Source: Omnitrophica WOR_2 bacterium GWF2_43_52
Lineage (GTDB): Bacteria; Omnitrophota; Gorgyraeia; Gygaellales; UBA12090
Direction: 5' to 3'
Assembly (NCBI GenBank): GCA_001805445.1
Contig: MHGF01000022.1
Location: 10,613 to 74,612 of the forward strand
DNA length: 64,000 nucleotides
Shown here: in pieces, positions 2,974 to 57,940 of the stretch
How positions within the stretch are numbered: position 1 is the first letter of the stretch
Layout: every line of letters begins with the position of its first letter
Position numbers and translations under genes: made by a program
Notes under the pieces: generated by a model
What the model was told of the DNA's origin: nothing
What the model saw: the letters and a program-made list of their open reading frames with translations, nothing else
Database searches by the model: none

Positions 2974-2979
2974 ACTTTT

Positions 2980-6078: not shown

Positions 6079-6172
6079 AACACGAATTCCCACGAATTAC
6101 ACACTAATCATCACGAATACAGCGACGAAGTAATTCGTGTGTATTTGTGTGTAATTTGTGCCTATTCGTGTA
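6079..6172. repeat. Copy 2 of the CACGAAT-word imperfect palindrome
   Basis: aacacgaattcccacgaattacacactaatcatcacgaatac...aattcgtgtgtatttgtgtgtaatttgtgcctattcgtgtaaaa. Confidence 0.8.
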
Positions 6173-6229
6173 AAATAAAGGTTTTTCAGCGGTAACTATA
6201 GTATATAGCTGAAGGCAACACAGGGACTT

Positions 6230-11050: not shown

Positions 11051-13947
<2,897 letters not shown>

Positions 13948-13950
13948 AGG

Positions 13951-14042
13951 AACACGAATAGGCACGAATCGCACACAAATCCACACAAATTGTCCCCGCA
14001 ATAATTCGCGGGAATTCGTGTGTAATGTGTGTTAATTCGTGT
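13951..14042. repeat. Copy 3 of the CACGAAT-word imperfect palindrome, abutting the secA start codon
   Basis: aacacgaataggcacgaatcgcacacaaatccacacaaatt...aattcgcgggaattcgtgtgtaatgtgtgttaattcgtgtt. Confidence 0.8.
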
Positions 14043-14049
14043 TGCTTAC

Positions 14050-25520: not shown

Positions 25521-25597
25521 AATTATTACGTTAGACTATACCATTGCTTCTTTTCTGTCAAGCGAATCCTTAGAGAGTATTGAAAAAATACTTTTTT

Positions 25598-25682
25598 ACA
25601 CGAATTCTCACGAATTCAATGCCGAATTACCACAAATTGCCGGCGAGACACATTCGTGTAAATGTAACAAAAATTCGTGCTT
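25598..25682. repeat. Copy 4 of the CACGAAT-word imperfect palindrome, 76 nt upstream of the histidine-kinase start
   Basis: tacacgaattctcacgaattcaatgccgaattaccacaaatt...cattcgtgtaaatgtaacaaaaattcgtgct. Confidence 0.8.
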
Positions 25683-32620: not shown

Positions 32621-33388
32621 TTATCGTTGTGTCCCTTCCTTTATGTGATACGCAACTTTATTCTTCTTACAAAACTTAATAACTGCCTGAGCTGAACTGT
32701 TGTAGAATTCCTTAGTATATTTAAATTCAGAAGATTTAACGCTATAGTTAAGCCGGCCAAATATAATTTTGTTTACAAATGATACTGCCTCTAAGATCTC
32801 CCTCAAATCCTGCTTAATTAAATTTGGCGTTGGGTATGGTTCCATGCTCACCCAAGTTTTGAATCCTCTACTACTCAGGTTCTTTAAGGTTTTAACTCTG
32901 TCCTTAAAAGGAGCGGAATTCGGCTCAAATTCCTTCCTGAAATCTTCGCTCAAGGATACCAAAGTAATGCCATATTCATTATTCGTACTTTGCCCGTTTC
33001 TGTCCGCTAATTCTTTGGGATAGGTACCCTTAGTTAGCACTGTGCAACGAATACTATTTTGATTAAGCCTATCAATAATTTTAAGGCTTAATTCGCCTAC
33101 TTCCGGTTGATTATACATGAATGGATCCGTAGAAAAACACATGTGGACATATTTTATTTTTTCTTTATAGCGAGGGATCTCCTTGTCTAGAAGCTCTAAT
33201 GCATTAGAAACAATCTTAGGCCGGCACCAATCTTCATAGGTTTTGACTATACCACATCTTTTTTTCATCATATAAGCGTAGCAGGGATATTTACAGCCAT
33301 GAGAACAACCCTCTACATGGTTTAAGCAAAAGTCGGCATATTCAACGCCGCTTTGATAAAGTAAAGTTTTACGCTCTATCTGATTCAT
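32621..33388 (-). CDS. COG1533/SPL-like radical-SAM-related protein with variant three-Cys cluster C-x3-C-x3-C
   Basis: GCSHGCKYPCYAY resembles the GCxHxCxYCYA core of DNA-repair-photolyase-like radical SAM proteins but with a one-residue insertion; start overlaps the upstream gene by 20 nt. Confidence 0.45.
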   Translation of the reverse strand: MNQIERKTLLYQSGVEYADFCLNHVEGCSHGCKYPCYAYMMKKRCGIVKTYEDWCRPKIVSNALELLDKEIPRYKEKIKYVHMCFSTDPFMYNQPEVGELSLKIIDRLNQNSIRCTVLTKGTYPKELADRNGQSTNNEYGITLVSLSEDFRKEFEPNSAPFKDRVKTLKNLSSRGFKTWVSMEPYPTPNLIKQDLREILEAVSFVNKIIFGRLNYSVKSSEFKYTKEFYNSSAQAVIKFCKKNKVAYHIKEGTQR

Positions 33389-34466
33389 CTTTAAATTGAA
33401 TTATATCGTTTTCTTCTATGGCTTTTCTCTGGCGCCCCTTAGGCGTGAATGGAGGAATTCTTCGAATTTTGATTTTATTCTTTGCTTCTAAACATTTTAA
33501 GGTATCCCTGAATTGACTCTCTAAGTAAACAGTCGAATCGATATTATCCTCAAGCAACGATTTAAATGATACTTCTTTGCCGAGATATTTTTTAAATAAT
33601 AACTCTATTATCTCACTTTGTTTTATATCCGCAAGTTCAAATAATTCTAGCTGACCAGAGCGGAATCCGCGATATTCCACTCGTCCGAGATTGTATTTAG
33701 CAAAAGACGATTTCATAATAGAACAGCCCATATAATAATTAGATAAATGAAAAAGATAATAATAAGTTTTGCGTTTCTCAGGAAATTCAAGTTTATAATA
33801 ATACACAAATTTAGAAAATGTCTTTAGCTGTTCCCTGTAGTGCTCGATAATTCCTTTCTCTCTTGCCTGCCCTTTCAATGTTTTGAATATCTGCCAACCG
33901 TTTCCACCAAATAAATCATTGTAAACATTCTCAACTCTTGGTGCAGATAAAAACTGATTTATTCGCGTAAACATAAAATTCAACAATATCTCTGATTTCT
34001 CAACGCTCATAATCTTTTTTAAAGTTTCCATCTTTATTTTGAATCCAAATGGATCTATAAAAACGAATGTTGGCGCAATATTCTTTACCGTACTAATAAC
34101 ATTATTTATGGTTTCATCAAAATCTTTGTCCACCATAAATGGCTTTATTTTAATCTTCGAATAATCCAGAATTTTCTGTATATTCTCCAAGTGTTCTTTG
34201 CTTTCATCAACAATAATAACATTTATATCTCGAGAGTTTTTTAAAGCTATCCTCTCAATAGCCTGACAGACTAATACCGGTGAACCATAAAAAAGCTTTC
34301 CTTCTTTATCTTTATATCCCCCAATCCCACCAAAACCATCGATAAAATTAAGTTTATTATATTTCCCGACAATTTTTATCCATTTATCAATATAATCAGC
34401 AAAAACAGAGTGCTTGGTTTTAGTCTGTTCTTCGTACTCCCAGGTTTTAAATGGCAATTCACCCAT
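33369..34466 (-). CDS. TcmP-like (three-Cys-motif partner) protein with methyltransferase-fold motifs
   Basis: LNFIDGFGGIGGY (FxGxG SAM-binding motif-I-like) and FVFIDPFGF (DPPY/DPPF-like motif IV) about 90 aa apart; family name recalled from memory, not verified. Confidence 0.4.
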   Translation of the reverse strand: MGELPFKTWEYEEQTKTKHSVFADYIDKWIKIVGKYNKLNFIDGFGGIGGYKDKEGKLFYGSPVLVCQAIERIALKNSRDINVIIVDESKEHLENIQKILDYSKIKIKPFMVDKDFDETINNVISTVKNIAPTFVFIDPFGFKIKMETLKKIMSVEKSEILLNFMFTRINQFLSAPRVENVYNDLFGGNGWQIFKTLKGQAREKGIIEHYREQLKTFSKFVYYYKLEFPEKRKTYYYLFHLSNYYMGCSIMKSSFAKYNLGRVEYRGFRSGQLELFELADIKQSEIIELLFKKYLGKEVSFKSLLEDNIDSTVYLESQFRDTLKCLEAKNKIKIRRIPPFTPKGRQRKAIEENDIIQFKDESDRA

Positions 34467-34479
34467 AATTATACTTTTG

Positions 34480-35460
34480 TTAAAACTGTTTAAATTTATA
34501 TTTACGAGTTAACAGTTTAACTTTTGCTTGTAAATCAGAATCAGACCCGCAAGCTGAAGCTTTTTTTATATTATAAGCTTCTGCTAGGGGTTGAAAAATA
34601 TTCTCGGTTAAGTCGTATATCTTTTTATGTAATCCTTCGCAATACTCAAAAATATCACATTCCATCAAGAGATCATCAAAATATGATTTGAGATTGTCTT
34701 CTTTTGACTTTCCATACGTAATACCTTGCTGAAAATAGTATGGCCATTGCCGGGAAAGAAAATGGTAGAATTTCTCATCGTTATCGTGGAAAAGAAATCC
34801 GCTATGATACCTAAAATGAGCCATTTTATCCCTATAAAGTTTAAATAGCTCAAACCACTCATTATTGCTATCATCGAGTATTTCCATTTTAATAAGATTG
34901 TTTATATCATCCTGATATTTTTCATCAGCTGAAACAATGGTTTTTTTACCCGAAGCAGCTGACGTTTTTAAGCCATCCTTGACTTTCTTTACAATCTCGG
35001 CAAAACTCGCTCTGCCGAAATTACCCCATGATAAAACAGCGCTTATGACTTCAGCGGTAGAATCTAAAATTGAATACATATTGATTAATAAAAGCTGAAG
35101 GCACCTGTTGAAGTGCTTAGGCGCTGAGGGATCAAAAGGCTCATTTTTTAGTTTCTTTATGGGGTTATAGGTATCAGCGTCATATTTTTTCATCAAATCA
35201 AACAACTCATGGTAATCCTCAAAAGAGGATTTTATTAAATCGACACTTGCGCCAAGATGAGAAAACATTATTCTTTGGTCATCAGCCAAGAACTTCGGGC
35301 ATTTATCAAAAGAAAAATAGTCTGCCTCAACATAAAATTTAAACAAAGGTTCAGGAATAACCTTGCTATTACGTGCCACTATCCATGAATCTTCGGGACA
35401 TGTTCTGGCTAATAGTGCTGATACAACAACATCTGCGGTTAAGCAATCTTTAAATTTCAT
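34480..35460 (-). CDS. Hypothetical protein of the cassette (possible HEPN-like R-x4-H motif)
   Basis: 326-aa ORF, AT-rich, tightly spaced with neighbours; YRDKMAHF motif. Confidence 0.3.
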   Translation of the reverse strand: MKFKDCLTADVVVSALLARTCPEDSWIVARNSKVIPEPLFKFYVEADYFSFDKCPKFLADDQRIMFSHLGASVDLIKSSFEDYHELFDLMKKYDADTYNPIKKLKNEPFDPSAPKHFNRCLQLLLINMYSILDSTAEVISAVLSWGNFGRASFAEIVKKVKDGLKTSAASGKKTIVSADEKYQDDINNLIKMEILDDSNNEWFELFKLYRDKMAHFRYHSGFLFHDNDEKFYHFLSRQWPYYFQQGITYGKSKEDNLKSYFDDLLMECDIFEYCEGLHKKIYDLTENIFQPLAEAYNIKKASACGSDSDLQAKVKLLTRKYKFKQF

Positions 35461-35565
35461 TATTCTAATCTTTCAATAATTATTTCTTAGACCAAGCGCC
35501 AATGTCATGTGCAGTCAACTGGATTTAATCAATTTAAACCAGCATATTACGCTACGAACTGCGAA

Positions 35566-36831
35566 TTATTTAGAGAAAATGCCATGGTCAACAAGCAATG
35601 GTGTTATAGAAGCGTCAACTAAACATCCGACAATTGCGCCCTTGCCTTCTTCAAATAGTTTTCGCGCCTCAATATTGTAATTTTCTCGAAGCTTTTTTAA
35701 GTCGGAGACATTTTCATTCCTTTTTAAATCAGTTTCGAGTTTAGCCATAAAATTAACAAGGTTATCGTAATTTAAACCTAATAAAAGCGTATTTCCTAAA
35801 ATAAAATCTTTAACTTCTATATGTTTCGCCGTTGCCGCAATCCATTCTTTTTGCGAAATATGATTTGCCCCTACGGCAAAGAGGGCACAAATATACCCCT
35901 CTGCGAGGGTTGCCTTTAGTGAATATATTGAACTTTTCTCTAAGTCATTTTCATCTAACAGTTTTTCTAATGCTAATATCCGCGCGTAGCTCTCTTCGTA
36001 CTTCTTTTCATTCGCTATTTTAGAAATATCTTGTGTTTCTTTAAGAGCATACTTCATGATTTTTTCCTTATCGATATTATTCTTTGCAGTATCGCCATTT
36101 TCGCGAATTGGAGGAAATACTTTCTCCGTGAAATCTACTATCTCTAATTTCCACCATAAATGATTTTTATGGTCGCCGAACTTACGGTAACGCTTACTCG
36201 GATAGTAATAGTCGTGGTCTGAAGGCGATATAGATTTACTATGAAATTGCTCCAAATTCTTAAAATCAGTTATGTTCAATCGAAATAAAATCGCGTCCAA
36301 CGGAATTTCCCGAGTTATAAGTGAGCTTATCTCGTCATATCTTCCTCGATTTAAATGTATTATCAATTCATTCGTTCTAAATAAATATGAGCAGGCCAGG
36401 GATTCCGTTAAAAACGGAACTCCTTCTAAAGCTTTTTGTTCTTCGTCAGAATAAAGGTCTGAAAAACAAAATTCATAGAAAGTCAGAGGATTTAGATAAT
36501 TCCCATTCGCATCTTCTATTTCAAAATAATCATTGAATTTTTCATCTTCATACGTCCAGATTTTTGCTCGACAGTAGTTATTCGCGTATAATTCCATTTT
36601 ATATGTAACACTGAATTTCTTTTTAGATATTTTCTCTACCGCTGAATCATCGTAGCTAGTTTTATTTTTAATCGTCTTTAGATAAAATGCTGGAAGTGGG
36701 GTAAGAGAAATGCTAACAATCTGATCTATCCCAGTAGGATTTACTATTTTTTCTATTAATGGACATTTGCAATGTAAACACGCTTTAATATTATCATCAT
36801 ATGATTTGTTGCATTTAGGACACTGTTTCAT
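35566..36831 (-). CDS. Hypothetical protein with N-terminal zinc ribbon (first gene of cassette operon)
   Basis: CPKCNKSY...CLHCKC at N-terminus; GAGGAGG SD upstream. Confidence 0.4.
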   Translation of the reverse strand: MKQCPKCNKSYDDNIKACLHCKCPLIEKIVNPTGIDQIVSISLTPLPAFYLKTIKNKTSYDDSAVEKISKKKFSVTYKMELYANNYCRAKIWTYEDEKFNDYFEIEDANGNYLNPLTFYEFCFSDLYSDEEQKALEGVPFLTESLACSYLFRTNELIIHLNRGRYDEISSLITREIPLDAILFRLNITDFKNLEQFHSKSISPSDHDYYYPSKRYRKFGDHKNHLWWKLEIVDFTEKVFPPIRENGDTAKNNIDKEKIMKYALKETQDISKIANEKKYEESYARILALEKLLDENDLEKSSIYSLKATLAEGYICALFAVGANHISQKEWIAATAKHIEVKDFILGNTLLLGLNYDNLVNFMAKLETDLKRNENVSDLKKLRENYNIEARKLFEEGKGAIVGCLVDASITPLLVDHGIFSK

Positions 36832-36867
36832 GGTTACCTCCTCACATCTCTTTAGTTAACTTAAAAA

Positions 36868-36912
36868 ACAAAAACCTCCGCCACTACTGGCGAAGGTTTT
36901 AATTATTTTTAC
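36868..36912 (-). terminator. Rho-independent terminator after the XRE regulator gene
   Basis: ccttcgccagtagtggcggagg hairpin followed by tttttgtttttt on the minus strand. Confidence 0.55.
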
Positions 36913-36991
36913 GTGGCAGTTCCCCCTTCAAACATACCACTTTACTTATACTTAATCGTTGTCTTACATATAGCATAAATTTACCGCCGAG

Positions 36992-37189
36992 TCAAACAAT
37001 TTTTGCCAAGTCATCAAGCGAAATGCCTAAAGATTTTGCTATGCCAACCATAGTGGAAAAAGTAGGATTTTTTGACTCCCCAGATTCAATCTTCACAATC
37101 GTGTTAAAAGATACATCTGCCAAGCAAGCCAGTTTTTCTTGAGATAAACCTTTTTTTAGCCTTAATTCTCTAATTTTCTTAGCTGACAT
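36992..37189 (-). CDS. XRE-family helix-turn-helix transcriptional regulator (65 aa)
   Basis: LRLKKGLSQEKLACLADVSFNTIVKIESG... HTH_3 pattern. Confidence 0.85.
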   Translation of the reverse strand: MSAKKIRELRLKKGLSQEKLACLADVSFNTIVKIESGESKNPTFSTMVGIAKSLGISLDDLAKIV

Positions 37190-37337
37190 TCTCTGACTTT
37201 ATATACTTTTACATATAAACTTTTATTAATAGCGTTTGCCCTATAGCGAATTTAATATACCACATTTTGAGCTTATTTTCCAATCAAAATCGGCAGCAAG
37301 ATGGGCATCAAGAAGCATTGATTTTTGCTTACTTGTA

Positions 37338-37362
37338 TTAAATAAAGCCTAACTTTATTTAA
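37338..37362. promoter_or_regulatory. Perfect 10-bp-arm palindrome, candidate operator for the XRE regulator
   Basis: ttaaataaag cctaa ctttatttaa in the XRE promoter region. Confidence 0.35.
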
Positions 37363-37392
37363 TAAACACGCTATGAAATTATCCCGGACTAT

Positions 37393-37440
37393 AAAATTTT
37401 TGCACGAAAACAGCTCTTTTTTACGTCTTATATAGTAGGA
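37393..37440 (+). promoter_or_regulatory. Conserved promoter-like motif copy C1 (AAAATTTTTGCACGAAAA-N13-ACGTCTTATATAGTAGG)
   Basis: Near-identical to copies at 39032-39080 and 41574-41623; diverged copy at 43104-43150. Confidence 0.5.
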
Positions 37441-37502
37441 GTATAGTGGTAAAAACTATAACCATTTATGCCAAAAAACGCACTATATGAGGAGGGGAAT
37501 AA

Positions 37503-38207
37503 ATGTTCAAAAAATATTCAAAGCGGATAAAACAAAGAATACGCAATTTAAGAAGCCGAGGCTGGTCATTGGGAGAAATTGGTTTAAAAACGGGCATACC
37601 TAAGAATACCCTGTCTGAATGGGTCAGAGATATTCAGCTTTCTAAGGCTCAAGAAAAACGAATAAAAGAAAAGGAAATAGCATCAGCGGCCATTGGAAGA
37701 GATATAGCCAGAAAAATATTGCGTGAAAAAATTGATAAATGGAAGGAAAAAATACGAGAAAAGGTAAAACATTTTGGCAAATCAGCTTTACTAAATCAAG
37801 AAATGGGAAAACTTGTATGTGGATTATTATATCTGTGCGAAGGCTCTAAGTATCCTTCTACCAGATGTTTGATTTTCGGTAACTCCGATCCTAGAATAAT
37901 CAAGGCGTTCCTTAATTTATTAAGGAACTATTTCCGTATTCGAGAGGACAAGTTACGCTGCAGAATCACTCCTCGTTGGGACCAAAACATTAATAAGTTG
38001 CAGATTTTCTGGTCAAATATTACTAAGATTCCTATTGAACAATTCTACCACACAATACCTGACAAGCGTACCAAAGGCAAGACTACTGGAAAGGAAGATT
38101 ATCAAGGAGTTTGCGTTATATATTATTGCGATACCTCATTACAATTTGAGTTACAATCAATCGGTGAAGCAGTAATTAAAGGTGTAGGGGGGAAATCGAA
38201 AAGTTAG
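37503..38207 (+). CDS. HTH-domain protein (234 aa), possibly a degenerate homing-endonuclease or transposase-like protein
   Basis: N-terminal HTH (GWSLGEIGLKTGIPKNTLSEW); weak LAGLIDADG-like GLLYLCEGS; abuts tRNA-Ala. Confidence 0.4.
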   Translation: MFKKYSKRIKQRIRNLRSRGWSLGEIGLKTGIPKNTLSEWVRDIQLSKAQEKRIKEKEIASAAIGRDIARKILREKIDKWKEKIREKVKHFGKSALLNQEMGKLVCGLLYLCEGSKYPSTRCLIFGNSDPRIIKAFLNLLRNYFRIREDKLRCRITPRWDQNINKLQIFWSNITKIPIEQFYHTIPDKRTKGKTTGKEDYQGVCVIYYCDTSLQFELQSIGEAVIKGVGGKSKS

Positions 38208-38280
38208 TGGAGCTGGAGGGGATCGAACCCTCTGCCTCTTCCATGCCATGGAAGCGCTCTCCCAGGTGAGCTACAGCCCC
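38208..38280 (-). tRNA. tRNA-Ala (anticodon GGC)
   Basis: Reverse complement folds as GGGGCTG/CAGCTCC acceptor with G3:U70, D-stem GCTC/GAGC, anticodon loop AT-GGC-AT, T-loop TTCGATC; no encoded CCA. Confidence 0.85.
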
Positions 38281-38346
38281 ATAAAAGCAGATTTAAGAAC
38301 TAAGAATTAAGATCTAAAAAAAACTATTTTTAAAACGACAAGTTAA

Positions 38347-38739
38347 TTATTCTTGCTTTAAATACTCCGATAGCTTCTCCCAAGTGCGGCTGCCCATGAC
38401 TCCATCTGCATTTAATCCATTTGCTTCCTGGAATTTTCTGATTGCTTCTTTGGTCGCGGAACCGATTTGCCCGTCTGCCTCACCTTTATAAAATCCGGCA
38501 TTCTTTAGCGCGGTTTGAATCTCGGTGGCTACCGGCATCTTAAAGACTACTTTTTGCTTTTTCGTGGCATCGGTCAAGGCCTCTGACAACGCATTCACCT
38601 TGTCTTTTAAGGCGCTATTCTCCTTTTGCAGGCGCTCAACTTGCCCTTCAAGCGAATTTATTTTACCCTGATACTCCAGCGTGGCGCATCCTGATGCCCC
38701 AAAAATTAAAAATAACCCTAAAAATATAGTTCTACCCAT
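38347..38739 (-). CDS. Lipoprotein with coiled-coil segment and C-terminal peptidoglycan-binding (PG_binding_1) domain
   Basis: Lipobox LIFGASGC; ...FYKGEADGQIGSATKEAIRKFQEANGLNADGVMGSRTW; start set at internal ATG (ORF-track start is a TTG). Confidence 0.6.
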   Translation of the reverse strand: MGRTIFLGLFLIFGASGCATLEYQGKINSLEGQVERLQKENSALKDKVNALSEALTDATKKQKVVFKMPVATEIQTALKNAGFYKGEADGQIGSATKEAIRKFQEANGLNADGVMGSRTWEKLSEYLKQE

Positions 38740-38789
38740 TTGGCTTTTCTCCTTTTTTAGAAGAGTAATTATACCCCAGCTTTCTTTGT

Positions 38790-38818
38790 TTGACAAATAT
38801 TATTTTAGGTGCTATATT
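38790..38818 (+). promoter_or_regulatory. Consensus sigma-70 promoter driving tRNA-Leu
   Basis: TTGACA - 17 nt - TATATT, 17 nt upstream of the tRNA 5' end. Confidence 0.5.
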
Positions 38819-38835
38819 TTACTCATTCTTCCTTT

Positions 38836-38918
38836 GCTGGAGTGGTGGAATGGCATACACGCCAGTCTCAAAAACTGGTGGGGTCACACCCGTGTGGGTT
38901 CAACTCCCACCTCCAGCA
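38836..38918 (+). tRNA. tRNA-Leu (anticodon CAA), type II with long variable arm
   Basis: GCTGGAG/CTCCAGC acceptor stem, anticodon stem CCAGT/ACTGG with loop CT-CAA-AA, variable arm GGGGTCACACCC, T-arm GTGGG TTCAACT CCCAC, discriminator A; embedded in spurious N-terminal extension of ORF 38681..39613. Confidence 0.75.
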
Positions 38919-39031
38919 TTTATTATTTTTGGGTTCTCCCGTCCCTCTTGTTAGCTTGCGCGGCGGGATCCCGCTACGCGGGAAACTCCCTTCCCCGGCA
39001 CCATATCTTCCTCCTATCTCATAATCTCCTG

Positions 39032-39080
39032 AAAATTTTTGCACGAAAACCGCCTCTTACTCCGTCTTATATTGTAGGAG
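39032..39080 (+). promoter_or_regulatory. Conserved promoter-like motif copy C2
   Basis: gaaaatttttgcacgaaaaccgcctcttactccgtcttatattgtaggagg directly upstream of ORF6N-1 ATG. Confidence 0.5.
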
Positions 39081-39088
39081 GCGAAGAT

Positions 39089-39613
39089 ATGGCTGATTTA
39101 ATATCTACAGAAATAATAACTGCAAATATTTTAGTTATAAGAGGTAAAAGGGTTATGCTAGATAGTGATTTAGCTGTGCTTTATGGCGTAAAGACCGGAA
39201 GATTAAACGAACAGGTAAGTAGAAACATTAAAAGGTTTCCGGAAGACTTTATGTTTCTGCTTACCAAAGAAGAGGCTTTAAGCTTGAAATCGCATTTTGC
39301 GACTTCAAGCTGGGGCGGCGTAAGAAAACTCCCTCGCGCCTTTACCCAAGAAGGTGTCGCTATGCTCTCAGGTGTGTTAAGCAGCGAACGCGCAATTATG
39401 GTCAATATACAGATTATGCGCGCCTTTACTCATCTAAGGCGCATGCTTCTAACCAATAAGGACCTCAAACGAAGAATTGAAGAAATGGAAGAGAAATACG
39501 ATAAGCAGTTTGCGATAGTATTTCAAGCTTTAAAACAATTATTGGAACCTGCGCCGACAAAACCAAAATCGCAGATTGGGTTTCGTATGTATAATGATTC
39601 TGAAAAAAGTTAA
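39089..39613 (+). CDS. ORF6N-domain DNA-binding protein, paralog 1
   Basis: VMLDSDLAVLYGVKTGRLNEQVSRNIKRFPEDFMFLLT core; AGGAGG SD; ORF-track N-terminal extension rejected. Confidence 0.75.
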   Translation: MADLISTEIITANILVIRGKRVMLDSDLAVLYGVKTGRLNEQVSRNIKRFPEDFMFLLTKEEALSLKSHFATSSWGGVRKLPRAFTQEGVAMLSGVLSSERAIMVNIQIMRAFTHLRRMLLTNKDLKRRIEEMEEKYDKQFAIVFQALKQLLEPAPTKPKSQIGFRMYNDSEKS

Positions 39614-39697
39614 ATTCTAATGGCGAGGGTGGTATAATATTATATATTCAATCATTCTTAGAACAAAGTTAATAACTCAAAAAAGGAGACAGAAACC

Positions 39698-40015
39698 ATG
39701 TTCATTAAAGGCATGACTTTAACAAGTACTGTGCTATTAGCTTGGGGGTTTTATTATATTATCCTTAGAAAGGCTTATGATAAACAAAGCAGGTCAAGAA
39801 ATAATTGGATTATAGGATTAATTTTTATGTTAAGTTCTAAATTATACGACATCATCATGTATAAAATTCATCATGGCATCAAAGATGAAATCAACTCAAC
39901 CGATACTGCATTTTTTATAATATCTATTTTTGTTTCGATAGCAACCATAGCAAAGATATTAAATAAAATAGAAAAAATAAAAAAACTGGATTCGAAGGAC
40001 GAAAATATTAGTTGA
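39698..40015 (+). CDS. Small membrane protein (105 aa), hypothetical
   Basis: Two hydrophobic helices; AT-rich island cargo; GGAGA SD. Confidence 0.35.
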   Translation: MFIKGMTLTSTVLLAWGFYYIILRKAYDKQSRSRNNWIIGLIFMLSSKLYDIIMYKIHHGIKDEINSTDTAFFIISIFVSIATIAKILNKIEKIKKLDSKDENIS

Positions 40016-40039
40016 CGCTTTTCAATCGAAAGTTATTAA

Positions 40040-40654
40040 ATGGCACACATAACACATGTTCCTTTAAATTTTGAAGAAGCTTGGGATTTAGCTGACTTGG
40101 AGGGCAGGAAACATGATTTGGAGTGGGTGAAAGAAGTCAGTCAAAAATATCTACAATGTTTTGACAAAATTAGCGATTTTATTATTCATGATGTTTTCTG
40201 TTCTGCAATAATTGTGAGATATGGACGCGCTCATAACAAAGGGCGTAAGAAAATTATGCCAGCCGAATGTTTCAAAGGCTTAACGCAAGAAGAAAAAGAT
40301 AAGCATAATTTTTTTATGAACTTGCGAAATAAACATTACGCGCATTCTGCGAATAACTACGAATATAATATCCCCAAAGCATGGATTAGAAACATAGATT
40401 CTCCTGGCCCAGAGTTTGATCAGGTAGGTGTAGTACATGAACGTATTGTCGGATTAAGTATCCAAGAAATACGGGATATTATGTCTTTGGTAGAAAAATT
40501 ATTACCGAACCTAGAAAACAAGATTAAAGAAACAAAAAATACGGTAACAGAGATTGCAAAACGGATTTCGATTAGCGAATTGATAAAAAATAAATTTCCA
40601 GAAATACTTACGACAAAGGAATCCGCCGGACAACCAAGAAAACGAAAACTTTAA
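40040..40654 (+). CDS. Hypothetical protein (204 aa) with possible HEPN/Abi-like RN-x4-H motif
   Basis: NLRNKHYAHS motif; AT-rich; flanked by small TM proteins. Confidence 0.35.
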   Translation: MAHITHVPLNFEEAWDLADLEGRKHDLEWVKEVSQKYLQCFDKISDFIIHDVFCSAIIVRYGRAHNKGRKKIMPAECFKGLTQEEKDKHNFFMNLRNKHYAHSANNYEYNIPKAWIRNIDSPGPEFDQVGVVHERIVGLSIQEIRDIMSLVEKLLPNLENKIKETKNTVTEIAKRISISELIKNKFPEILTTKESAGQPRKRKL

Positions 40655-40690
40655 GTTGGAAAACAATGAGTATCCGGAGGCTAAAAGAAA

Positions 40691-41083
40691 ATGGATATAA
40701 GAAAAATTAAAAGAAGGCAGTGGTTGATTGTGATTCTTTTGGGTATCCCGACTTTTATACTAGGAAGATTCTTTCTGAAATATTACAGTAATTTATTGAC
40801 TATAGTCGTACTTCTTGTATGGCTGGGTACCCTTCGACTTATACTCCTTTTAGTTGAGAAAATTCAGAGAAAACCTATTAAGCAGATTCAAAAGAAAATA
40901 GACGCTTATGAGAAAATAACAAAAGAAGAATTTGAATTTTGGCAGAAGAATTACAATGGTCTTACAAATTATGGCACTTATGAAAATTATTTAAGAATCT
41001 GTGACTTGCCTCCAGACAAGCGAGATCCTTTCAGAGGGGTAGATTTTTCGAAAATATTTAAAACAAATAAAAATGAACATTAA
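40691..41083 (+). CDS. Small membrane protein (130 aa), hypothetical
   Basis: Two N-terminal TM helices then a charged soluble tail. Confidence 0.35.
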   Translation: MDIRKIKRRQWLIVILLGIPTFILGRFFLKYYSNLLTIVVLLVWLGTLRLILLLVEKIQRKPIKQIQKKIDAYEKITKEEFEFWQKNYNGLTNYGTYENYLRICDLPPDKRDPFRGVDFSKIFKTNKNEH

Positions 41084-41195
41084 TAAAATTATATTCTGAT
41101 AAGAGTTATTAAAGTTTTAGCTATAAAGATAGAAGAAACATAAATTTTCATCTCCGAAACAAATTTTTTTGTTGGCTCTCAAACCATCTCCACAA

Positions 41196-41232
41196 AAGGC
41201 TCGGCATGCCGCACCGCCGAGTTTTTTTTGTT
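41196..41232 (+). terminator. Rho-independent terminator after the 39.7-41.1 kb gene trio
   Basis: ggctcggcatgccgcaccgccgag followed by T8. Confidence 0.55.
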
Positions 41233-41573
41233 GCTGATTGCGGCATAGCGGACGAGCATAGGTAGTTTTTAGGGGACTAGAGCGAGGACGCTGGGGTTGG
41301 CGGCGCCGCCGCCAGCCCCAAGCCTAGCCGAACACGCACGGCATTAGCTGGAAGCCTACCGCCGAGGCAGGCGCCGAGTGAGTCCCGCTCCCAAGCGGGG
41401 CGAACGGTGCAAGGGAGATGCGGAAGCGCGCCCAAGCTCGCGGGACATTATTTCATTGACGAGGAATTGTGATTGTAATAATCTTGGAGTGAATAGTTTA
41501 TTTGACAAATTGCCTTTTGGGGCATTCCTCATAGGAAGAGCACTATCTTGTTCCTTTTCCTAAGATTCCCTCT

Positions 41574-41623
41574 AAAAAATTTTGCACGAAAATAGCTTCC
41601 TTTTACGTCTTATATAGTAGGGG
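41574..41623 (+). promoter_or_regulatory. Conserved promoter-like motif copy C3
   Basis: aaaaaattttgcacgaaaatagcttccttttacgtcttatatagtagggg. Confidence 0.5.
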
Positions 41624-41720
41624 CAATATTTTAACCCTAATTTGGCCAATTAGATGCCAAAGTAAACCTTGATGCGCCATTTTGGCACATCAAATCGGGC
41701 GTTGGAAGGAGGAATACACT

Positions 41721-42293
41721 ATGTCTAAGGCTATCACCGCGGAAATCATCGCTGCAGAAATTCTAGAATTTAGAGGAAAAAAGGTAATGCTGGATCGTGA
41801 TTTAGCAACACTTTATGGAGTTACTCCTAAAGTTTTGAATCAAGCAGTAAAAAGAAATATCAAACGTTTTCCTGAGGATTTTATGTTTCAGCTCTCTTGG
41901 GAAGAAACAGATTCTTTAAGGTCACAATTTGTGACCTTAAAGAATACAAGACTCGAAGCCTCCAAAAGAGGCAAACATATTAAATATCTCCCCTATGTTT
42001 TTACAGAACACGGTGTAGCTATGCTCTCCAGCGTTTTAAACAGCGAAAGAGCCATACAAGTGAACATCCAAATTATGAGGGCTTTTACTAAATTAAGAGA
42101 AATGCTGCTAACTCATAAAGACTTAGCAGAAAAGATTGAGACCCTTGAGAAGAAATACGCCGAACATGATCAGGCTATTAAGGCAATATTTGAAGCAATT
42201 AAACAGCTCCTTGAGCCGCCGCTAGCAAAACCAAAGCCACAGATTGGATTCCGCTCTTATAAAGAGCCTACAGAAGAAGTAAAATATGCCTAA
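41721..42293 (+). CDS. ORF6N-domain DNA-binding protein, paralog 2
   Basis: VMLDRDLATLYGVTPKVLNQAVKRNIKRFPEDFMFQLS; start set at MSKAITAEI after GGAAGGAGG SD. Confidence 0.75.
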   Translation: MSKAITAEIIAAEILEFRGKKVMLDRDLATLYGVTPKVLNQAVKRNIKRFPEDFMFQLSWEETDSLRSQFVTLKNTRLEASKRGKHIKYLPYVFTEHGVAMLSSVLNSERAIQVNIQIMRAFTKLREMLLTHKDLAEKIETLEKKYAEHDQAIKAIFEAIKQLLEPPLAKPKPQIGFRSYKEPTEEVKYA

Positions 42294-42585
42294 TTCGATC
42301 TCAACAGAAGTAATAACCAGTAAAATCTTTATGTTAAGAGGTAAAAAGGTAATATTGGATAGAGATTTAGCCCTGCTTTATGGTGCAACAACTAAACGGC
42401 TAAATGAACGGGTAAGAAGAAATGAAAAACGGTTTCCTGAGGATTTCATGTTTCAATTAACAAAACCCGAGAAAATCGAACTGGTCGCAATTTGCGGCCG
42501 GTTCGATTCTATGAAACATTCAACTGTTTTACCCTATGCCTTTACCGTATGTTTCGGCTTACTGGAGGAGAGCGTGATTTTTTGA
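42286..42585 (+). pseudogene. Truncated ORF6N-domain paralog 3 (pseudogene fragment)
   Basis: Intact N-terminal 70 aa (VILDRDLALLYGATTKRLNERVRRNEKRFPEDFMFQLT) then premature stop; downstream DNA (about 42586-42610) still matches ORF6N-1 nt about 39290-39320 (tcgcattytgcgacttcaagcyggg). Confidence 0.55.
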
Positions 42586-42633
42586 GGTCGCATTCTGCGA
42601 CTTCAAGCCGGGGATACGTTAGATAGGCTTTTG

Positions 42634-43056
42634 CTAAAAACTTACCCTATCCCCTATTTTTATTTCATTCTTCTTCGCAAAGCCGGCGTTTACTTCTAAG
42701 ACATACAACGCCTTATCGCCAGGCGTGAGGCTTTCGCAGGTTTGGTTACAGGTAGGGACATCGGTTTTTATATCCACGATCCGCTTATCTTTATCAATCC
42801 AGATGATATCCAAGGGGAAACGCATATTTTTCATCCAAAAGCTGTAGCGCGCTTCTTTTTCAAAAACAAAAAGCATCCCCTTGCTTTCGGGCAAGCCTTC
42901 CCGGTACATTAAGCCTCTCTGCCTCAAGGCATCAATATCCGCGATTTCCGCCTCTACGCAGACATCGTTAAGGCAAACCCGCGTAATCGGCTCTTGGGCA
43001 CAAAGGACAGTGCAAAAAATCAGCCAAGAGATAAAAGTTATTGTTTTTACTCGCAT
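42634..43056 (-). CDS. DUF192 family secreted protein
   Basis: Signal peptide and MRFPLDIIWIDKDKRIVDI core typical of DUF192. Confidence 0.6.
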   Translation of the reverse strand: MRVKTITFISWLIFCTVLCAQEPITRVCLNDVCVEAEIADIDALRQRGLMYREGLPESKGMLFVFEKEARYSFWMKNMRFPLDIIWIDKDKRIVDIKTDVPTCNQTCESLTPGDKALYVLEVNAGFAKKNEIKIGDRVSF

Positions 43057-43103
43057 ATCAAACCTGTGAAAAATGAATGGGTTATGTTATAATAAGTATA
43101 CTA

Positions 43104-43150
43104 CAAAATTTTTGGGAATAAAATGAGAACTTTTTACGTCTAATATGGTG
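43104..43150 (+). promoter_or_regulatory. Diverged copy C4 of the conserved promoter-like motif, upstream of the ECF sigma gene
   Basis: acaaaatttttgggaataaaatgagaactttttacgtctaatatgg; shares AAAATTTTTG and TTTTTACGTCTnATAT blocks with C1-C3. Confidence 0.45.
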
Positions 43151-43161
43151 AAAGGGCAATA

Positions 43162-43701
43162 ATGGACGAAGATTTAGAACTTATCAATAAGTTCAAAAGC
43201 GGACATTTGGAGGGTTTTGAGATGCTGGTGAAAAAATATCACACAAGGGTTATCACTATTGCCAATTCCTTCGTTGGCAATACCAGCGATGCCGAAGATA
43301 TCGCCCAGGAAACGTTTCTTAAAATATACCATACTCTGGAAAGCTTTAAGGCCCAGGCAAAATTCTCCAGCTGGCTTTATAGAATTACCGTCAATACTGC
43401 CTATGACCATTTACGAAAAAATAAACACAAGCCTCTATCGCTTGATGAGATTGACTACTCTGCTATAAGCGACAATAAAAACCGCGAAGACCTGGTAGCC
43501 AAAGAAGCGATGCAAGAAGCCTTGAATAAAATCCCCTTTGATTTTAGAAGCGCGCTTACTTTGAAAGAAATTGAAGGCCTCTCCTATCAAGAAATTGCCG
43601 AGGCCTTAAAAATAACTATCGGCACGGTAGAATCGCGCATTTTCAGGGCGCGCCAAATACTTAAAAAACTGCTTACGCACAAGGAGCCAGACAAAAGATG
43701 A
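43162..43701 (+). CDS. ECF-type RNA polymerase sigma factor (sigma-70 family group IV)
   Basis: Region 2 (DAEDIAQETFLKIYHTLESF...WLYRITVNTAYD) and region 4 (LSYQEIAEALKITIGTVESRIFRARQ). Confidence 0.9.
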   Translation: MDEDLELINKFKSGHLEGFEMLVKKYHTRVITIANSFVGNTSDAEDIAQETFLKIYHTLESFKAQAKFSSWLYRITVNTAYDHLRKNKHKPLSLDEIDYSAISDNKNREDLVAKEAMQEALNKIPFDFRSALTLKEIEGLSYQEIAEALKITIGTVESRIFRARQILKKLLTHKEPDKR

Positions 43702-44180
43702 ACTGCGCACACTCAAGACGTATAAGCCGCTACGCGGATAACGAACTCCCTCAAAAAGAAAAAGAGTTTTTAGACAAGCACATATTCACCTGCCCTCCCT
43801 GCCTGCACGAGCTAAAGGCCATTACTTCAATAAAAGAACGCATCCTTAAAAATAAAGTTGATACGAATGCCGGATTCTTCTGGCAGACGCTTAAAAAGCG
43901 CATCGATACAGAAGCACGCGCTGTATCAACGAAAGAAATGTTTTCCTTGGACTTCGGTAGTTGGGCAAAGCGGCTGATTCCCGTTCCGATTTTTGCAAGC
44001 CTTCTCGTGCTTGCGTTCTTAACTATAAACTCTAGAAACTCAAATTTAATTGATGCATACCTATTTACCAATCAAGACAGCAGTGTTTTAGAGCTGATGG
44101 ATAATGCCGGTAGCCAATCAGAGATAAATATACTGCTGTATAACCAAACCTCTTTCTTACGCTCGCAATCGATATGCTAA
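43698..44180 (+). CDS. Zinc-finger (zf-HC2) anti-sigma factor with one TM segment
   Basis: HIFTCPPCLHEL motif; ATGA start overlap with the sigma gene. Confidence 0.7.
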   Translation: MNCAHSRRISRYADNELPQKEKEFLDKHIFTCPPCLHELKAITSIKERILKNKVDTNAGFFWQTLKKRIDTEARAVSTKEMFSLDFGSWAKRLIPVPIFASLLVLAFLTINSRNSNLIDAYLFTNQDSSVLELMDNAGSQSEINILLYNQTSFLRSQSIC

Positions 44181-44211: not shown

Positions 44212-44748
44212 ATGAAAAAAACAGCTATCTACGCGGTAACACTCACTGTTATTTCTCTTGGGGCAGGAGCGGTGATAGGCGTGGCGGTTGACCACCAGCT
44301 CATAAAGAAACGCCTGCAGCGTTTGCACCATGACAAAATAGCAAAATTTCAACAGGCCAGACAAGGAGGGCCAAAGGAACTATTTGAAAAGATATCTAGT
44401 GCTTTGCGCCTTGATGATAAGCAAAAAGAAGTTGTTAAACAAATTTTAGAAAAGACGCGTAACGACATTGCCGAAATCGGCAAAGAAGCACATGAGAAGA
44501 TGCTTACGGTGCGTAACGAAAGTAATGACAGGATGCGGGAAATCCTTAATCCCCAGCAGCAGCAACAATTTCAGAAGATGTTATCCGACTTGGAAGAAAA
44601 AGGACAAAAGGCGCGCCGCTTCTTACAAAGGCGCTTAAGCCCGCAGCCTCCCGCGCCGGGAGAGGCTCCCGAGGCAGATGAGCATCTTCCTCCTCCCCCG
44701 CCACCTGGAGCGCCTGAAGATTTTCCTGAACCACCGGAAAATTTCTGA
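44212..44748 (+). CDS. Periplasmic Spy/CpxP-like (LTXXQ-motif) protein with Pro-rich C-terminus
   Basis: Signal peptide; LDDKQKEVVKQIL and LNPQQQQQFQKML repeats; PPPPPPGAPEDFPEPP tail. Confidence 0.45.
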   Translation: MKKTAIYAVTLTVISLGAGAVIGVAVDHQLIKKRLQRLHHDKIAKFQQARQGGPKELFEKISSALRLDDKQKEVVKQILEKTRNDIAEIGKEAHEKMLTVRNESNDRMREILNPQQQQQFQKMLSDLEEKGQKARRFLQRRLSPQPPAPGEAPEADEHLPPPPPPGAPEDFPEPPENF

Positions 44749-50854: not shown

Positions 50855-50886
50855 TTGACTATACCATACTAAGTATGGTATATAAA
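50855..50886. promoter_or_regulatory. Consensus-like promoter with an embedded perfect 21-bp palindrome
   Basis: TTGACT ataccatact a agtatggtat ataaat; palindrome ATACCATACTAAGTATGGTAT. Confidence 0.45.
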
Positions 50887-50989
50887 TAAGTGAGCGGTAA
50901 GACCGCTGCGGGTTGTTCCAAGTGTTCCCTTCCGTATGGTTGGCCATAGCTTGGACACTTCAAGCCTGCAGGGCGCGCTCATTTTCATT

Positions 50990-51631
50990 TTATGGCAGAT
51001 ATACGCTGTCATACCTGACCTTTTCTTTCCAAAACACATTAAACCACTCCATATCGCGTTTTTCGTATTTCCTAAAGATTCCCCAACAGAATATATCCAC
51101 CGCCTGTAATCCTAAACTCTCATGCGATAAATAATGATAAATATCAACAGGAATCTTAGGATCAATCCTCCCTTTCAACTCCCTCATAATGTAAGAATTG
51201 AATTCTGCTATTTCCGGCCTTGCCTTGCTTTTATCCACAACTAAATATATCCTTGAGTGCGCCGCTTCAAGAGGAATTTTGTCCATAGCGAGCCGTACAA
51301 CATAATTGTAAACCCGCTCTTTATCTTTCGTAAGGTGGGCATAAAGCCGTTTTTTATTCAAAGTGAGCGAATAAATGTCAAACTCTATACCCTTACACTG
51401 GCTATAAAAATACTTCAATACTCCGAGAGAGGTCTTTGAGCCTTTTAATTCCATCATATCCGATTTTTTATTGAGCTTACGTTTTATCGTGTTTTTGACG
51501 GAATTGATTAACGAGCGGTTTGCCGCGGATCCCATTAACGCAAGAATAGTAACGGTAAAAAAATTGGAGGGTTTCTTGTTCACAAAATCAAACCCCAAAT
51601 CACCGCTTTCATCAAGATACAAATAAAGCAC
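50990..51631 (-). CDS. DUF3800 family protein
   Basis: N-terminal MLYLYLDESGD motif characteristic of DUF3800. Confidence 0.55.
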   Translation of the reverse strand: MLYLYLDESGDLGFDFVNKKPSNFFTVTILALMGSAANRSLINSVKNTIKRKLNKKSDMMELKGSKTSLGVLKYFYSQCKGIEFDIYSLTLNKKRLYAHLTKDKERVYNYVVRLAMDKIPLEAAHSRIYLVVDKSKARPEIAEFNSYIMRELKGRIDPKIPVDIYHYLSHESLGLQAVDIFCWGIFRKYEKRDMEWFNVFWKEKVRYDSVYLP

Positions 51632-51774: not shown

Positions 51775-52245
51775 TCATCTTTTCTCAATTAATTCTTCCA
51801 ATTTAACTATAATCTCATCTAATTTGTCTTTAATGCTATCCCCAAAAGAACTGCCGTCTAAAGAACTTAGATCTTCCTTTATGGAACTCACATCGCTCTC
51901 AAGCGAACTTAAATCATTCAACTTTGCGTCTACCGAACTTAAATGGCTCTCAATATCTAATAAATCTGTTCTATCACTCTCGAGCGACTTTAAATTGCTT
52001 AATTTTGCGTCTATTGAACTTAAATGGCGTTCAATGTTAGATAAATCTGTTCTATCCAATGAACTGATTAACTTGTACGAAATTGAGCTTACATCACTTT
52101 CAATTGAACTTAAACACATTTTAAACCAAACCAGAAAAATAATAAGTAAAACAAAACATATATACACTACCATTCCTTGCCCTCCTTTTCGGATATATTC
52201 ACGATTAGGGCAATAACTTTCATTGCCATTAAGCGCGGGTGGCAA
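51775..52245 (-). CDS. Membrane-anchored coiled-coil protein with internal tandem repeats; N-terminal extension doubtful
   Basis: Repeats RTDLxxIExHLSSxDAKLxxLxSLESD x2; likely true start at MVVYICF; upstream codons overlap the 160-bp repeat element. Confidence 0.4.
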   Translation of the reverse strand: MPPALNGNESYCPNREYIRKGGQGMVVYICFVLLIIFLVWFKMCLSSIESDVSSISYKLISSLDRTDLSNIERHLSSIDAKLSNLKSLESDRTDLLDIESHLSSVDAKLNDLSSLESDVSSIKEDLSSLDGSSFGDSIKDKLDEIIVKLEELIEKR

Positions 52246-52390
52246 GGTTGTGTTTGAGTAGGGCGTACGGAAATTTTTGCAGCTTGGCCGCCGAGCGACA
52301 GCGAGGCGTGCAAAAATTTACGCCGAGTGAGGCTTACCGCAGGAGTAAGCCGAACGTCCCTGCGAAAACATAACCTTGACAGGACCCGCG
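52232..52390. repeat. Copy A of a roughly 160-bp GC-rich hairpin-rich repeat element
   Basis: About 95% identical to 57781-57940; internal inverted repeats ggcgtacggaaatttttgca / tgcaaaaatttacgcc and gcttaccgcaggagtaagc. Confidence 0.85.
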
Positions 52391-56413: not shown

Positions 56414-56473
56414 TGTTTAATACTACGAATTTACGCGAATTTATGCCTGCTTAGCAAGCAGGCTCATCAAATT

Positions 56474-56525
56474 GACACGAATATTCGTGTTAATTCGGCT
56501 CTTGATTCGCGGGAATTCGTGTTAT
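56474..56525. repeat. Copy 5 (short) of the CACGAAT-word palindrome; encodes the last 11 codons of the upstream hydrolase
   Basis: attgacacgaatattcgtgttaattcggctcttgattcgcgggaattcgtgtt. Confidence 0.75.
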
Positions 56526-57780: not shown

Positions 57781-57940
57781 AGCGCGGGCGGCGAGGTTGT
57801 GTTTGAGCAGGGCGTACGGAAATTTTTGCAGCTTGGCCGCCGAGCGGTAAGCGAGGCGTGCAAAAATTTACGCCGAGTGAGGCTTGCCGCAGGAGCGAGC
57901 CGAACGTCCCTGCGAAAACATAACCTTGACAGGACCCGCG
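57781..57940. repeat. Copy B of the roughly 160-bp GC-rich hairpin-rich repeat element
   Basis: See copy A; hairpin gcttgccgcaggagcgagc carries compensatory changes relative to copy A (A-U to G-C). Confidence 0.85.

Follow-up and report, generated by a model that had tools for sequence, protein, structure and literature searches.

Candidate promoters of two ECF sigma factors in Omnitrophota, with a common -10 half and different -35 halves

The closest described counterparts of the elements studied here are the promoters of RpoE-like sigma factors of the extracytoplasmic function (ECF) type. The -35 element of E. coli sigma-E is GGAACTT, and the B. subtilis factors sigma-W, sigma-M, and sigma-X use TGAAAC, TGCAAC, or TGTAAC, followed after 16-17 nt by CGTA or CGTC. 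The regulons of these three B. subtilis factors overlap, with the -35 held in common and the -10 discriminating between them. The pairing of a housekeeping promoter with an ECF promoter is also a familiar arrangement. To our knowledge, almost nothing is known of transcription signals in the Omnitrophota, a widespread phylum with nearly no cultured representatives. We analysed a window of 64,000 nt from one of its members, Omnitrophica WOR_2 bacterium GWF2_43_52 (assembly GCA_001805445.1, contig MHGF01000022.1, positions 10,613 to 74,612 of the forward strand), in which four look-alike, promoter-like sites precede genes. We number them 1 to 4 in the order of their positions; the fourth stands directly ahead of the gene of an RpoE-like ECF sigma factor, sig1.

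RpoE1 of T. tengcongensis has an autoregulated promoter, tGTTAC-N16-CGTC, in which −13CGTC−10 is essential and the TATA stretch behind it dispensable; in region 2.4 of this factor, the D of the DXXR motif reads the G of CGTC (PMC3397946). The four sites resemble RpoE-like promoters in having a -35 pentamer or hexamer, a gap of 16-18 nt, CGTC, an A/T-rich "TATA"-like stretch, and a Shine-Dalgarno sequence, and site 4 also in lying immediately before a sigma/anti-sigma operon. They differ in the -35 element, which is GGAAT with a conserved AAA(A) at site 4 and TTGCACG, without the usual AAC, at sites 1-3; a relative has TTGAACG. As with sigma-W, sigma-X, and sigma-M of B. subtilis, the promoters of several ECF sigma factors in one organism would have one half-site in common, and the other would distinguish them. 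The roles of the halves are exchanged, however: here the -10 CGTCT is common, and GGAAT or TTGCACG would discriminate between what we infer to be two regulons. With moderate confidence, we read the four sites as ECF-sigma-type promoters of two specificity classes, class 1 (sites 1-3) and class 2 (site 4), which have the -10 half in common and differ in the -35 half. As elements they are of an ordinary kind, promoters of alternative sigma factors, and involve no new mechanism.

Four promoter-like sites in one register

A repeat search within the window grouped the four sites into one 47-nt family (D3), with all copies on the + strand: 37393-37439 (site 1), 39032-39078 (site 2), 41575-41621 (site 3), and 43106-43152 (site 4). 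Identity to the first copy is 83 % for site 2, 89 % for site 3, and 64 % for site 4. All four follow a common register, namely a pentamer (GCACG at sites 1-3, GGAAT at site 4), AAAA, 13 nt, and CGTCT(T/A)ATAT, and the gap between pentamer and CGTCT is 17 nt in each of them. When the window was compared with its shuffles, the pattern AAAA-N13-CGTCTNNTA was found 4 times against 0.04 expected. The string CGTCTWATATNGT, with at most one mismatch, gave 4 matches against 0.42 expected, a count reached by none of 100 shuffles, and TTTTGCACGAAAA occurs exactly three times in the window.

The anatomy of the sites is that of an ECF promoter: CGTC follows the -35 block after 17 nt, an A/T-rich tract lies upstream, and the distance to the Shine-Dalgarno sequence is fitting. 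The start codon follows the motif's end after 63 nt at site 1 (gene 37503-38207), 10 nt at site 2 (ORF6N gene 39089-39613), 99 nt at site 3 (ORF6N gene 41721-42293), and 9 nt at site 4 (sigma gene 43162-43701). At sites 2 and 4, CGTC is followed after 9-10 nt by the Shine-Dalgarno sequence. We compared these sites with related Omnitrophota and metagenome loci (labelled Lnnn), some 700 kb of DNA in all. A CGTC-type -10 element is present in 4/4 window sites, in 31/31 class 1 sites, where CGTCT was fixed by the search pattern, and in 9/9 class 2 sites, where it was not, these having been found through orthologous genes. We consider it likely, with good confidence, that sites 1-3 are ECF-type promoters.

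A preliminary description of this DNA had pointed to a conserved motif of about 48 nt at four places, with CGTCT lying 17-18 nt after a GCAC(G)/GGAAT block. Both observations hold, the spacing being 17 nt throughout, and the resemblance to ECF-type promoters that it noted is supported by the anatomy and by conservation at orthologous positions in other genomes. It had placed the motif before two ORF6N genes, an ECF sigma gene, and the gene of a helix-turn-helix (HTH) protein. The two ORF6N genes and the sigma gene are confirmed; the HTH identity of the 234-aa product of the remaining gene reaches only sub-threshold matches. The view of site 4 as a diverged copy needs correction, as its GGAAT is a different and separately conserved -35 element.

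The sig1 operon and its promoter

Site 4 (43106-43152, + strand) comprises an A/T tract, the -35 GGAAT at 43115-43119, AAAA, a 13-nt spacer, and the -10 CGTCT at 43137-43141; the Shine-Dalgarno sequence GAAAGGG and the ATG at 43162 follow on the same strand. GGAAT-N17-CGTCT occurs only once in the window, 20 nt ahead of sig1 and directly before the sigma/anti-sigma operon. Compared with the "AAC" of known ECF -35 elements, GGAAT has T in place of C at the 17-nt spacing, and this is invariant in the orthologues.

The sig1 gene (43162-43701, + strand) encodes a 179-aa RpoE-like protein with Pfam domains Sigma70_r2 and r4_2. It scores 107 bits against the NCBIfam model TIGR02937 (sigma70-ECF; cut-off 42.9), and the solved structures nearest to it are of the AlgU and sigma-E type. 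In an alignment with a second ECF sigma factor introduced below (sig2), the DXXR motif of region 2.4 reads DHLR in sig1 and DYIR in sig2. Contigs of groundwater metagenomes (Rifle, ANAN16 / PRJNA268031, among others) encode an identical sig1 protein, whose named homologues are Candidatus Omnitrophota. The start of the next gene (43698-44180, + strand) overlaps the sigma stop codon; it encodes a zf-HC2 anti-sigma factor (Pfam zf-HC2, E = 2.3e-8) with one membrane-spanning segment at residues ~90-112 in a hydropathy scan. The third gene of the operon (44212-44748, + strand) encodes a signal-anchored, coiled, LTXXQ/Spy-CpxP-like protein, the Pfam LTXXQ match being weak and below the cut-off (E = 0.0017). 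In all orthologous loci the gene order is sigma, a zf-HC2 or small anti-sigma-like gene, and a third gene of 142-178 aa.

We compared the loci of sig1 orthologues with 52-78 % identity from about 10 Candidatus Omnitrophota lineages (L010-L014, L019, L033-L037). The block GGAATAAA(A)-N13/14-CGTCT(A/T)AT lies 20-30 nt ahead of the ATG of the sig1 orthologue in L010, L012/13, L014, L019, L033, L034, L035, L036, L037, and L058. It is present upstream of every orthologue examined, although the flanking sequence diverges: the consensus over the lineages is aaa..T...GGAATAAAa.........tT..CGTCTaAT, between unconserved flanks, and GGAAT is invariant in 9/9 distinct sig1-upstream sites. In the related DNA as a whole, GGAAT-N16-18-CGTC[AT] is found only upstream of sig1 orthologues.

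The suggestion in the preliminary description that the ECF sigma factor regulates its own gene is thus strengthened, since the block precedes all these orthologues down to 52 % protein identity, and we regard site 4 as very probably the autoregulatory promoter of sig1. The anti-sigma factor would keep sig1 inactive until an envelope signal frees it. RNA polymerase carrying sig1 would then use region 4 of the sigma factor to contact GGAAT and region 2, with its DXXR motif, to contact CGTC, and transcription would start about 7-10 nt past CGTC, just ahead of the Shine-Dalgarno sequence. A predicted sigma-70-like promoter with an extended -10 (GTGAAA-16-TGtTATAAT, 43066-43093, + strand) was identified by its match to the consensus alone, and TGcTATAAT or TGtTATAAT stands at the equivalent place in L010, L012, and L019. 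It is the probable housekeeping promoter (P1) of the sigma operon, and site 4 would amplify the operon's own expression above the basal level from this promoter 45 nt upstream.

The class 1 module and the sigma factor that may read it

Sites 1-3 have the form TTGCACGAAAA-N13-CGTCTTATA. Site 1 (37393-37439, + strand) contains AAAATTTT, TTGCACG at 37400-37406, AAAA, a 13-nt spacer, CGTCT at 37424-37428, and TATATAGTAGGAG. It precedes the gene of the 234-aa protein (37503-38207, + strand), which has an HTH-like N-terminal segment and no significant family match. Orthologous sites lie ahead of the same gene in L025, L051, L057, L060, and L069, and homologues of the protein are encoded downstream of the motif in L025, L051, L055, L057, and L072. 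Site 2 (39032-39078, + strand) has TTGCACG at 39039-39045, CGTCT at 39063-39067, and GTAGGAGG, which serves as the Shine-Dalgarno sequence for the ATG at 39089. Its orthologous sites are found immediately 3' of tRNA-Leu in L010, L012, L013, L019, L059, L060, L065, and L074; in the first four of these, the orthologous ORF6N genes are preceded by TTTTTGCACGAAAA…CGTCT(T/A)(A/T)TATAGTAGGAGG, straight after tRNA-Leu(CAA). Site 3 (41575-41621, + strand), with TTGCACG at 41582-41588 and CGTCT at 41606-41610, is followed by a 99-nt leader containing a hairpin (41668-41694), and this leader is conserved in L012 and L013.

Across related genomes and metagenomes, class 1 is a module of about 50 nt with 31 distinct sites and the consensus AAaAtttTTGCACGAAAAc.GCc..tT.tT.CGTCTtatataGTAggag. 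Conservation also extends to positions left free by the search pattern, among them the A/T tract upstream, GC in the spacer, the T positions, and GTA. The -35 lies 17-18 nt from the -10 and lacks AAC; the sites of one relative, L075, read TTGAACG, further pentamer variants are GCGCG and GCATG, and one ORF6N site in the TTGCACG lineage L069 carries CGTCA. A strict motif scan of species-representative genomes gave 18 matches, close to the rough chance estimate of ~17 for a pattern of such information content. Three are true, all in Omnitrophota and syntenic; we took the other 15 as chance because they lack flank similarity. The strict pattern was too strict to catch the sites before anti-sigma and spoVG genes described below. 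A scan of metagenome contigs yielded ~21 that were true, and several of these contained the module two or three times. In viral contigs, the pattern TTGCACGAAAA-N13-CGTCT gave 12 matches, none with flank similarity and hence also taken as chance, and a phage origin was rejected. In the Hainich relatives L012 (3264) and L013 (3253), a class 1 module precedes the second ORF6N gene by ~300 nt, and L013 has a GC-rich insertion between module and gene (~3400-3570) with a broken -10 copy (…ctttacggtgcagtaggag) next to the leader, an arrangement that looks like promoter decay or rearrangement.

The genes behind class 1 sites encode ORF6N proteins, homologues of the 234-aa protein, Bro-N proteins, SpoVG, and a 152-aa zf-HC2 anti-sigma factor. 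The last of these genes always follows that of an ECF sigma factor of 198-200 aa, which we named sig2. The sig2 protein has Pfam regions r2 and r4 and scores 67.7 bits against TIGR02937 (cut-off 42.9), but it is only ~22 % identical to the local sigma factor, with which it shares the DXXR motif. In contrast to the broad family of sig1, that of sig2 is narrow, with 45 proteins, and every named member is from Omnitrophota. The start of sig2 overlaps the end of aroC, and at least six lineages (L050, L064, L068, L071, L075, L077/L079) keep the order aroC-sig2-anti-sigma-spoVG. In L050, L064, L068, L071, L075, and L077, the anti-sigma gene has a class 1 module between it and sig2. A second module, ahead of spoVG, extends over the final codons of the anti-sigma gene. 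Lineages that keep the module before both genes have sig2 identities of 55-68 %, and the neighbouring intergenic sequence diverges. In the most distant sig2 lineage, L075 (55 % identity), both promoters read TTGAACGAAAA-N13-CGTCA and contain the canonical ECF -35 "GAAC". The anti-sigma gene beside sig2 ends inside the -35 of the spoVG promoter (L071 5700-5725; L075 6090-6115), where …EKIFARK* is encoded by GAAAAAATTTTTGCACGAAAATAG; given this overlap, the change from GCACG to GAACG in L075 also alters the C-terminus of the protein (A to E). Like other ZAS-type (zf-HC2) anti-sigma modules, the sig1 and sig2 loci each have a zf-HC2 gene right after the ECF sigma gene. The sig2 locus differs from them in that sig2 overlaps the end of aroC with no class 1 promoter ahead of it; that promoter is placed between sigma and anti-sigma. 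Such a layout would give feedback on the anti-sigma factor only.

The preliminary description had proposed that all four sites form the regulon of the local sigma factor, with the sigma, the anti-sigma, the Spy-like chaperone, and the ORF6N proteins as members. For this, sig1 would have to tolerate two -35 elements, with AAAA, the A/T element, and CGTCT carrying most of the binding. The spacing is indeed identical, and AAAA-N13-CGTCT(T/A)AT and a T-rich segment before the -10 are common to all sites. Using position matrices built from the nine distinct sig1-upstream sites and the 31 class 1 sites, we found that the -10 halves cross-score at 12.3 bits, against 16.1 for self, a value in the upper tail of ~2e-5 of window positions. 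Sites 1-3 also lie less than 6 kb from sig1, and an ORF6N class 1 site is 2-4.5 kb from sig1 in L010, L012/13, and L019. The -35 halves behave otherwise: against 15.6 bits for the true sites, class 1 sites score 1.1 bits on the sig1 matrix, a value that ~0.9 % of random window positions reach and that comes from the AAAA shared by both classes. TTGCACG matches the invariant GGAAT at 2/5 bases. In the ~700 kb of related DNA, the TTGCACG type is never found before sig1 orthologues and the GGAAT type never before other genes. Distant sig1 loci adjoin ETF or other genes and have no ORF6N gene nearby. Conversely, L024 has the ORF6N class 1 site without sig1 within 8 kb, and the class 1 sites of the sig2 loci, which lie inside the operon of a second ECF sigma factor, are likewise without sig1 nearby. 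Given the -35 mismatch, the invariance of GGAAT, and the separate loci, we attribute site 4 to sig1 and consider sig2 the more probable reader of sites 1-3; a single sig1 regulon appears unlikely. Of the members proposed, the LTXXQ/Spy-like gene belongs to the sig1 operon by position, and the ORF6N genes are probably outside the sig1 regulon.

Other explanations concern sites 1-3 themselves. They might be an operator or leader cassette spread by duplication and run by ORF6N, Bro-N, SpoVG, or the HTH protein, with any CGTC-reading ECF sigma factor transcribing it. Conservation over ~50 nt, including the spacer GC, T, and TATATAGTAGGAG, exceeds what an ECF promoter typically needs; GTAGGAG persists even at sites with a start codon 60-200 nt distant; the downstream genes mostly encode nucleic-acid-binding proteins; and sites 2 and 3 share upstream homology that includes a remnant of a tRNA 3' end, which implies that a larger unit was duplicated. 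However, the module precedes non-mobile core genes (anti-sigma, spoVG) at sig2 identities of 55-68 %, which argues for selection rather than recent copying, it holds no palindrome or direct repeat typical of operators, and the concerted change of -35 and -10 in L075 suits a sigma factor acting in trans. We judge the cassette explanation improbable as the whole account, noting that it is compatible with reading by sig2 rather than exclusive of it. Far less credible is a sigma-54 promoter, in which TTGCACG-AAAA-yMGC would stand for the -24/-12 elements TGGCACG-N4-TTGC and CGTCT for the transcript start. The likeness is superficial and consists of GCACG with GC 10 nt downstream in 3/3 window sites and most of the 31, with 1.6-1.7 bits at the spacer GC. 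At the near-invariant GG doublet, every class 1 site has T for the first G, the -12 GC is replaced in L024 (AC), L025 (GG), and L055 (AT), and TTGAACG in L075 loses the -24 element and creates the canonical ECF GAAC. Moreover, CGTCT(T/A)AT at the same spacing is common to the clear ECF promoter, and no gene of an enhancer-binding protein and no upstream activator sites were seen; we rejected this reading. The least plausible explanation of all is that the similarity is due to chance or is a functionless by-product of ORF6N duplication. Sites 2 and 3 do precede paralogous ORF6N genes and have extra upstream homology, but four matches stand against 0.04 expected, the gene after site 1 has no detectable ORF6N similarity (no common family match), the module lies ahead of five different types of genes across many lineages, and the site 4 block precedes sigma orthologues down to 52 % identity.

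Several simpler candidates were also discarded. A sigma-70 reading of sites 1-3 would place 23 nt between TTGCAC and TATATA, and a scan gives only a 9/12 match, using TTTACG. A randomly scattered mobile repeat, raised in the preliminary description, or a miniature inverted-repeat transposable element does not fit four copies in 64 kb that all point at a gene start, with one or two strict, syntenic matches per species-representative genome; the sites occupy orthologous positions in other genomes. A known RNA or riboswitch was dismissed after an Rfam search of 36800-43300 (E <= 1), which returned nothing at the four sites; it gave two tRNAs and two sub-threshold matches, both at 36830-36963, away from them. 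A small conserved open reading frame after GTAGGAG at site 1 was also rejected, the GTG of the window being GTA in L025.

We return to sig2 as the reader of sites 1-3, which seems somewhat more probable than reading by sig1. Class 1 is most likely the second promoter module of a Candidatus Omnitrophota clade; it would drive the genes of ORF6N and Bro-N proteins, the 234-aa HTH protein, SpoVG, and the zf-HC2 anti-sigma factor, and be read by the lineage-restricted sig2. Ahead of the anti-sigma gene, it would act as negative feedback on sig2. A tblastn search of the 64-kb window found no sig2, and we infer that the source organism encodes it elsewhere. More tentatively, one can picture a clade-specific sigma factor, co-transcribed with aroC, whose sig2-dependent promoter stands only at the anti-sigma gene as a buffer, whose promoter is a near-invariant module of ~50 nt, and whose regulon consists almost wholly of nucleic-acid-binding proteins of phage or mobile type (ORF6N, Bro-N, HTH) together with SpoVG. 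If true, sig2 would control domesticated KilA-N-like regulators and be insulated from a neighbouring RpoE-like envelope-stress sigma factor by the -35 alone.

Several points weigh against this explanation. The promoter function of all sites is deduced from anatomy and conservation. Classical autoregulation would have the module upstream of sig2, and class 1 is found downstream of it. Class 1 sites stand within 2-6 kb of sig1 both in the window and in the nearest relatives, a possible functional link. No single metagenome-assembled genome was found with both sig2 and the sig1/class 1 locus (GCA_038041105.1 [JBBTHZ01] versus CAKKRH01, the Hainich genome of L024), and their co-occurrence is at the level of samples only (Ga0209211, Ga0209212, Hainich H52). 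In length and in conservation (spacer GC, T positions, TATATAGTA), the module exceeds what an ECF promoter requires, which may reflect an extra factor or a recent origin in common. Finally, the argument from concerted change concerns two promoters of one lineage, and the L069 ORF6N site also has CGTCA.

Surrounding features and significance

Site 1 would drive the 234-aa gene, which abuts tRNA-Ala. This gene is part of a low-GC island (32621-38207; 0.32-0.36 versus ~0.44) that extends from an AP-endonuclease gene to tRNA-Ala and is absent from the syntenic L010 and L012; its genes encode radical-SAM, GMT-wHTH, two large proteins without a family match, XRE HTH, and the site 1 protein. The ORF6N-domain protein after site 2 (39089-39613, + strand) is KilA-N-like and DNA-binding by family (Pfam ORF6N, E = 1.6e-31), and its gene is the first of a four-gene + strand unit that extends to 41083. 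A GC-rich hairpin (ctcggc...gccgag) followed by TTTTTTTT lies at 41198-41236 (+ strand; the T-run was read from the + sequence, and a scan listed the same stem on the minus strand). It is the probable intrinsic terminator of the site 2 unit, ahead of site 3, and site 2 would drive ORF6N and three small genes of no known function up to this point. Past the terminator, site 3 would drive two ORF6N genes through its conserved leader, one full length (41721-42293, E = 6.8e-35) and one truncated (42286-42585, E = 1.6e-23; both + strand, Pfam ORF6N). Between this terminator and site 3 there is a GC-rich segment of ~175 nt (41270-41445) that is identical in L074.

The tRNA-Leu(CAA) gene (38835-38919, + strand) lies within a segment spanning 38835-39006. 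About 65 nt past it, directly before site 2, there is an older remnant of a tRNA-Leu 3' end (…ccttccccggcacca, ~38984-39006), at the place where relatives have an intact tRNA-Leu end, and a second, degenerate copy is found ahead of site 3 (41540-41573). The remnants before both sites suggest that the ORF6N cassettes arrived or were duplicated through integration or duplication events at the tRNA gene.

Two GC-rich intergenic elements of 160 nt, ~95 % identical, lie on the minus strand (52232-52390 and 57781-57940). Neither matches an Rfam family or recurs in the related loci compared, and blastn found no homology between them and the GC-rich segments beside sites 2 and 3. Folded as RNA, the first forms one long hairpin (-68.7 kcal/mol, z = -7.2). 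A fragment of the motif had been reported inside these repeats, and the 13-mer AAATTTTTGCACG is indeed present as an exact match on the minus strand of both (52307-52319 and 57857-57869). There it forms one hairpin arm, pairing with TGCAAAAATTT in the stem; given this pairing and the lack of CGTCT at promoter spacing, we do not count these copies as promoters of this type. The chance of an exact match to any 13-mer of the motif is roughly 0.05-0.1, and we regard the occurrence, which stays slightly unexplained, as unrelated or at most coincidental.

At five intergenic places (2976-3072, 6075-6174, 13947-14045, 25593-25637, and 56424-56521), about four copies of (A)CACGAAT with a period of 10-11 nt are followed by four inverted copies, ATTCGTG. 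These arrays are large, helically phased palindromes, and CACGAATNNNCACGAAT with at most two mismatches gives 16 matches against 0.32 expected; they look like a multi-site operator or a bidirectional element. At gathering thresholds, Rfam identified in the whole window only the two tRNAs and a DUF3800-V RNA (RF02964, 70.9 bits) at 50886-50985 (+ strand), adjoining the 3' end of a DUF3800 gene on the minus strand (50990-51631).

The comparison provides a well-supported cognate promoter for a conserved RpoE-like sigma factor, GGAATAAA-N14-CGTCTAAT, and, as a second class of promoters, TTGCACGAAAA-N13-CGTCT, for which there are a candidate sigma factor and a candidate regulon. It also calls for caution, as common -10 boxes and proximity are insufficient to assign sites to a nearby ECF sigma factor; it is the -35 element, compared with orthologous autoregulatory promoters, that separates the classes. 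Both classes are usable in heterologous ECF reporter systems and for annotating regulons in metagenome-assembled genomes. Their main value lies in a first usable definition of promoter and regulon for two ECF sigma factors of an almost wholly uncultured phylum.

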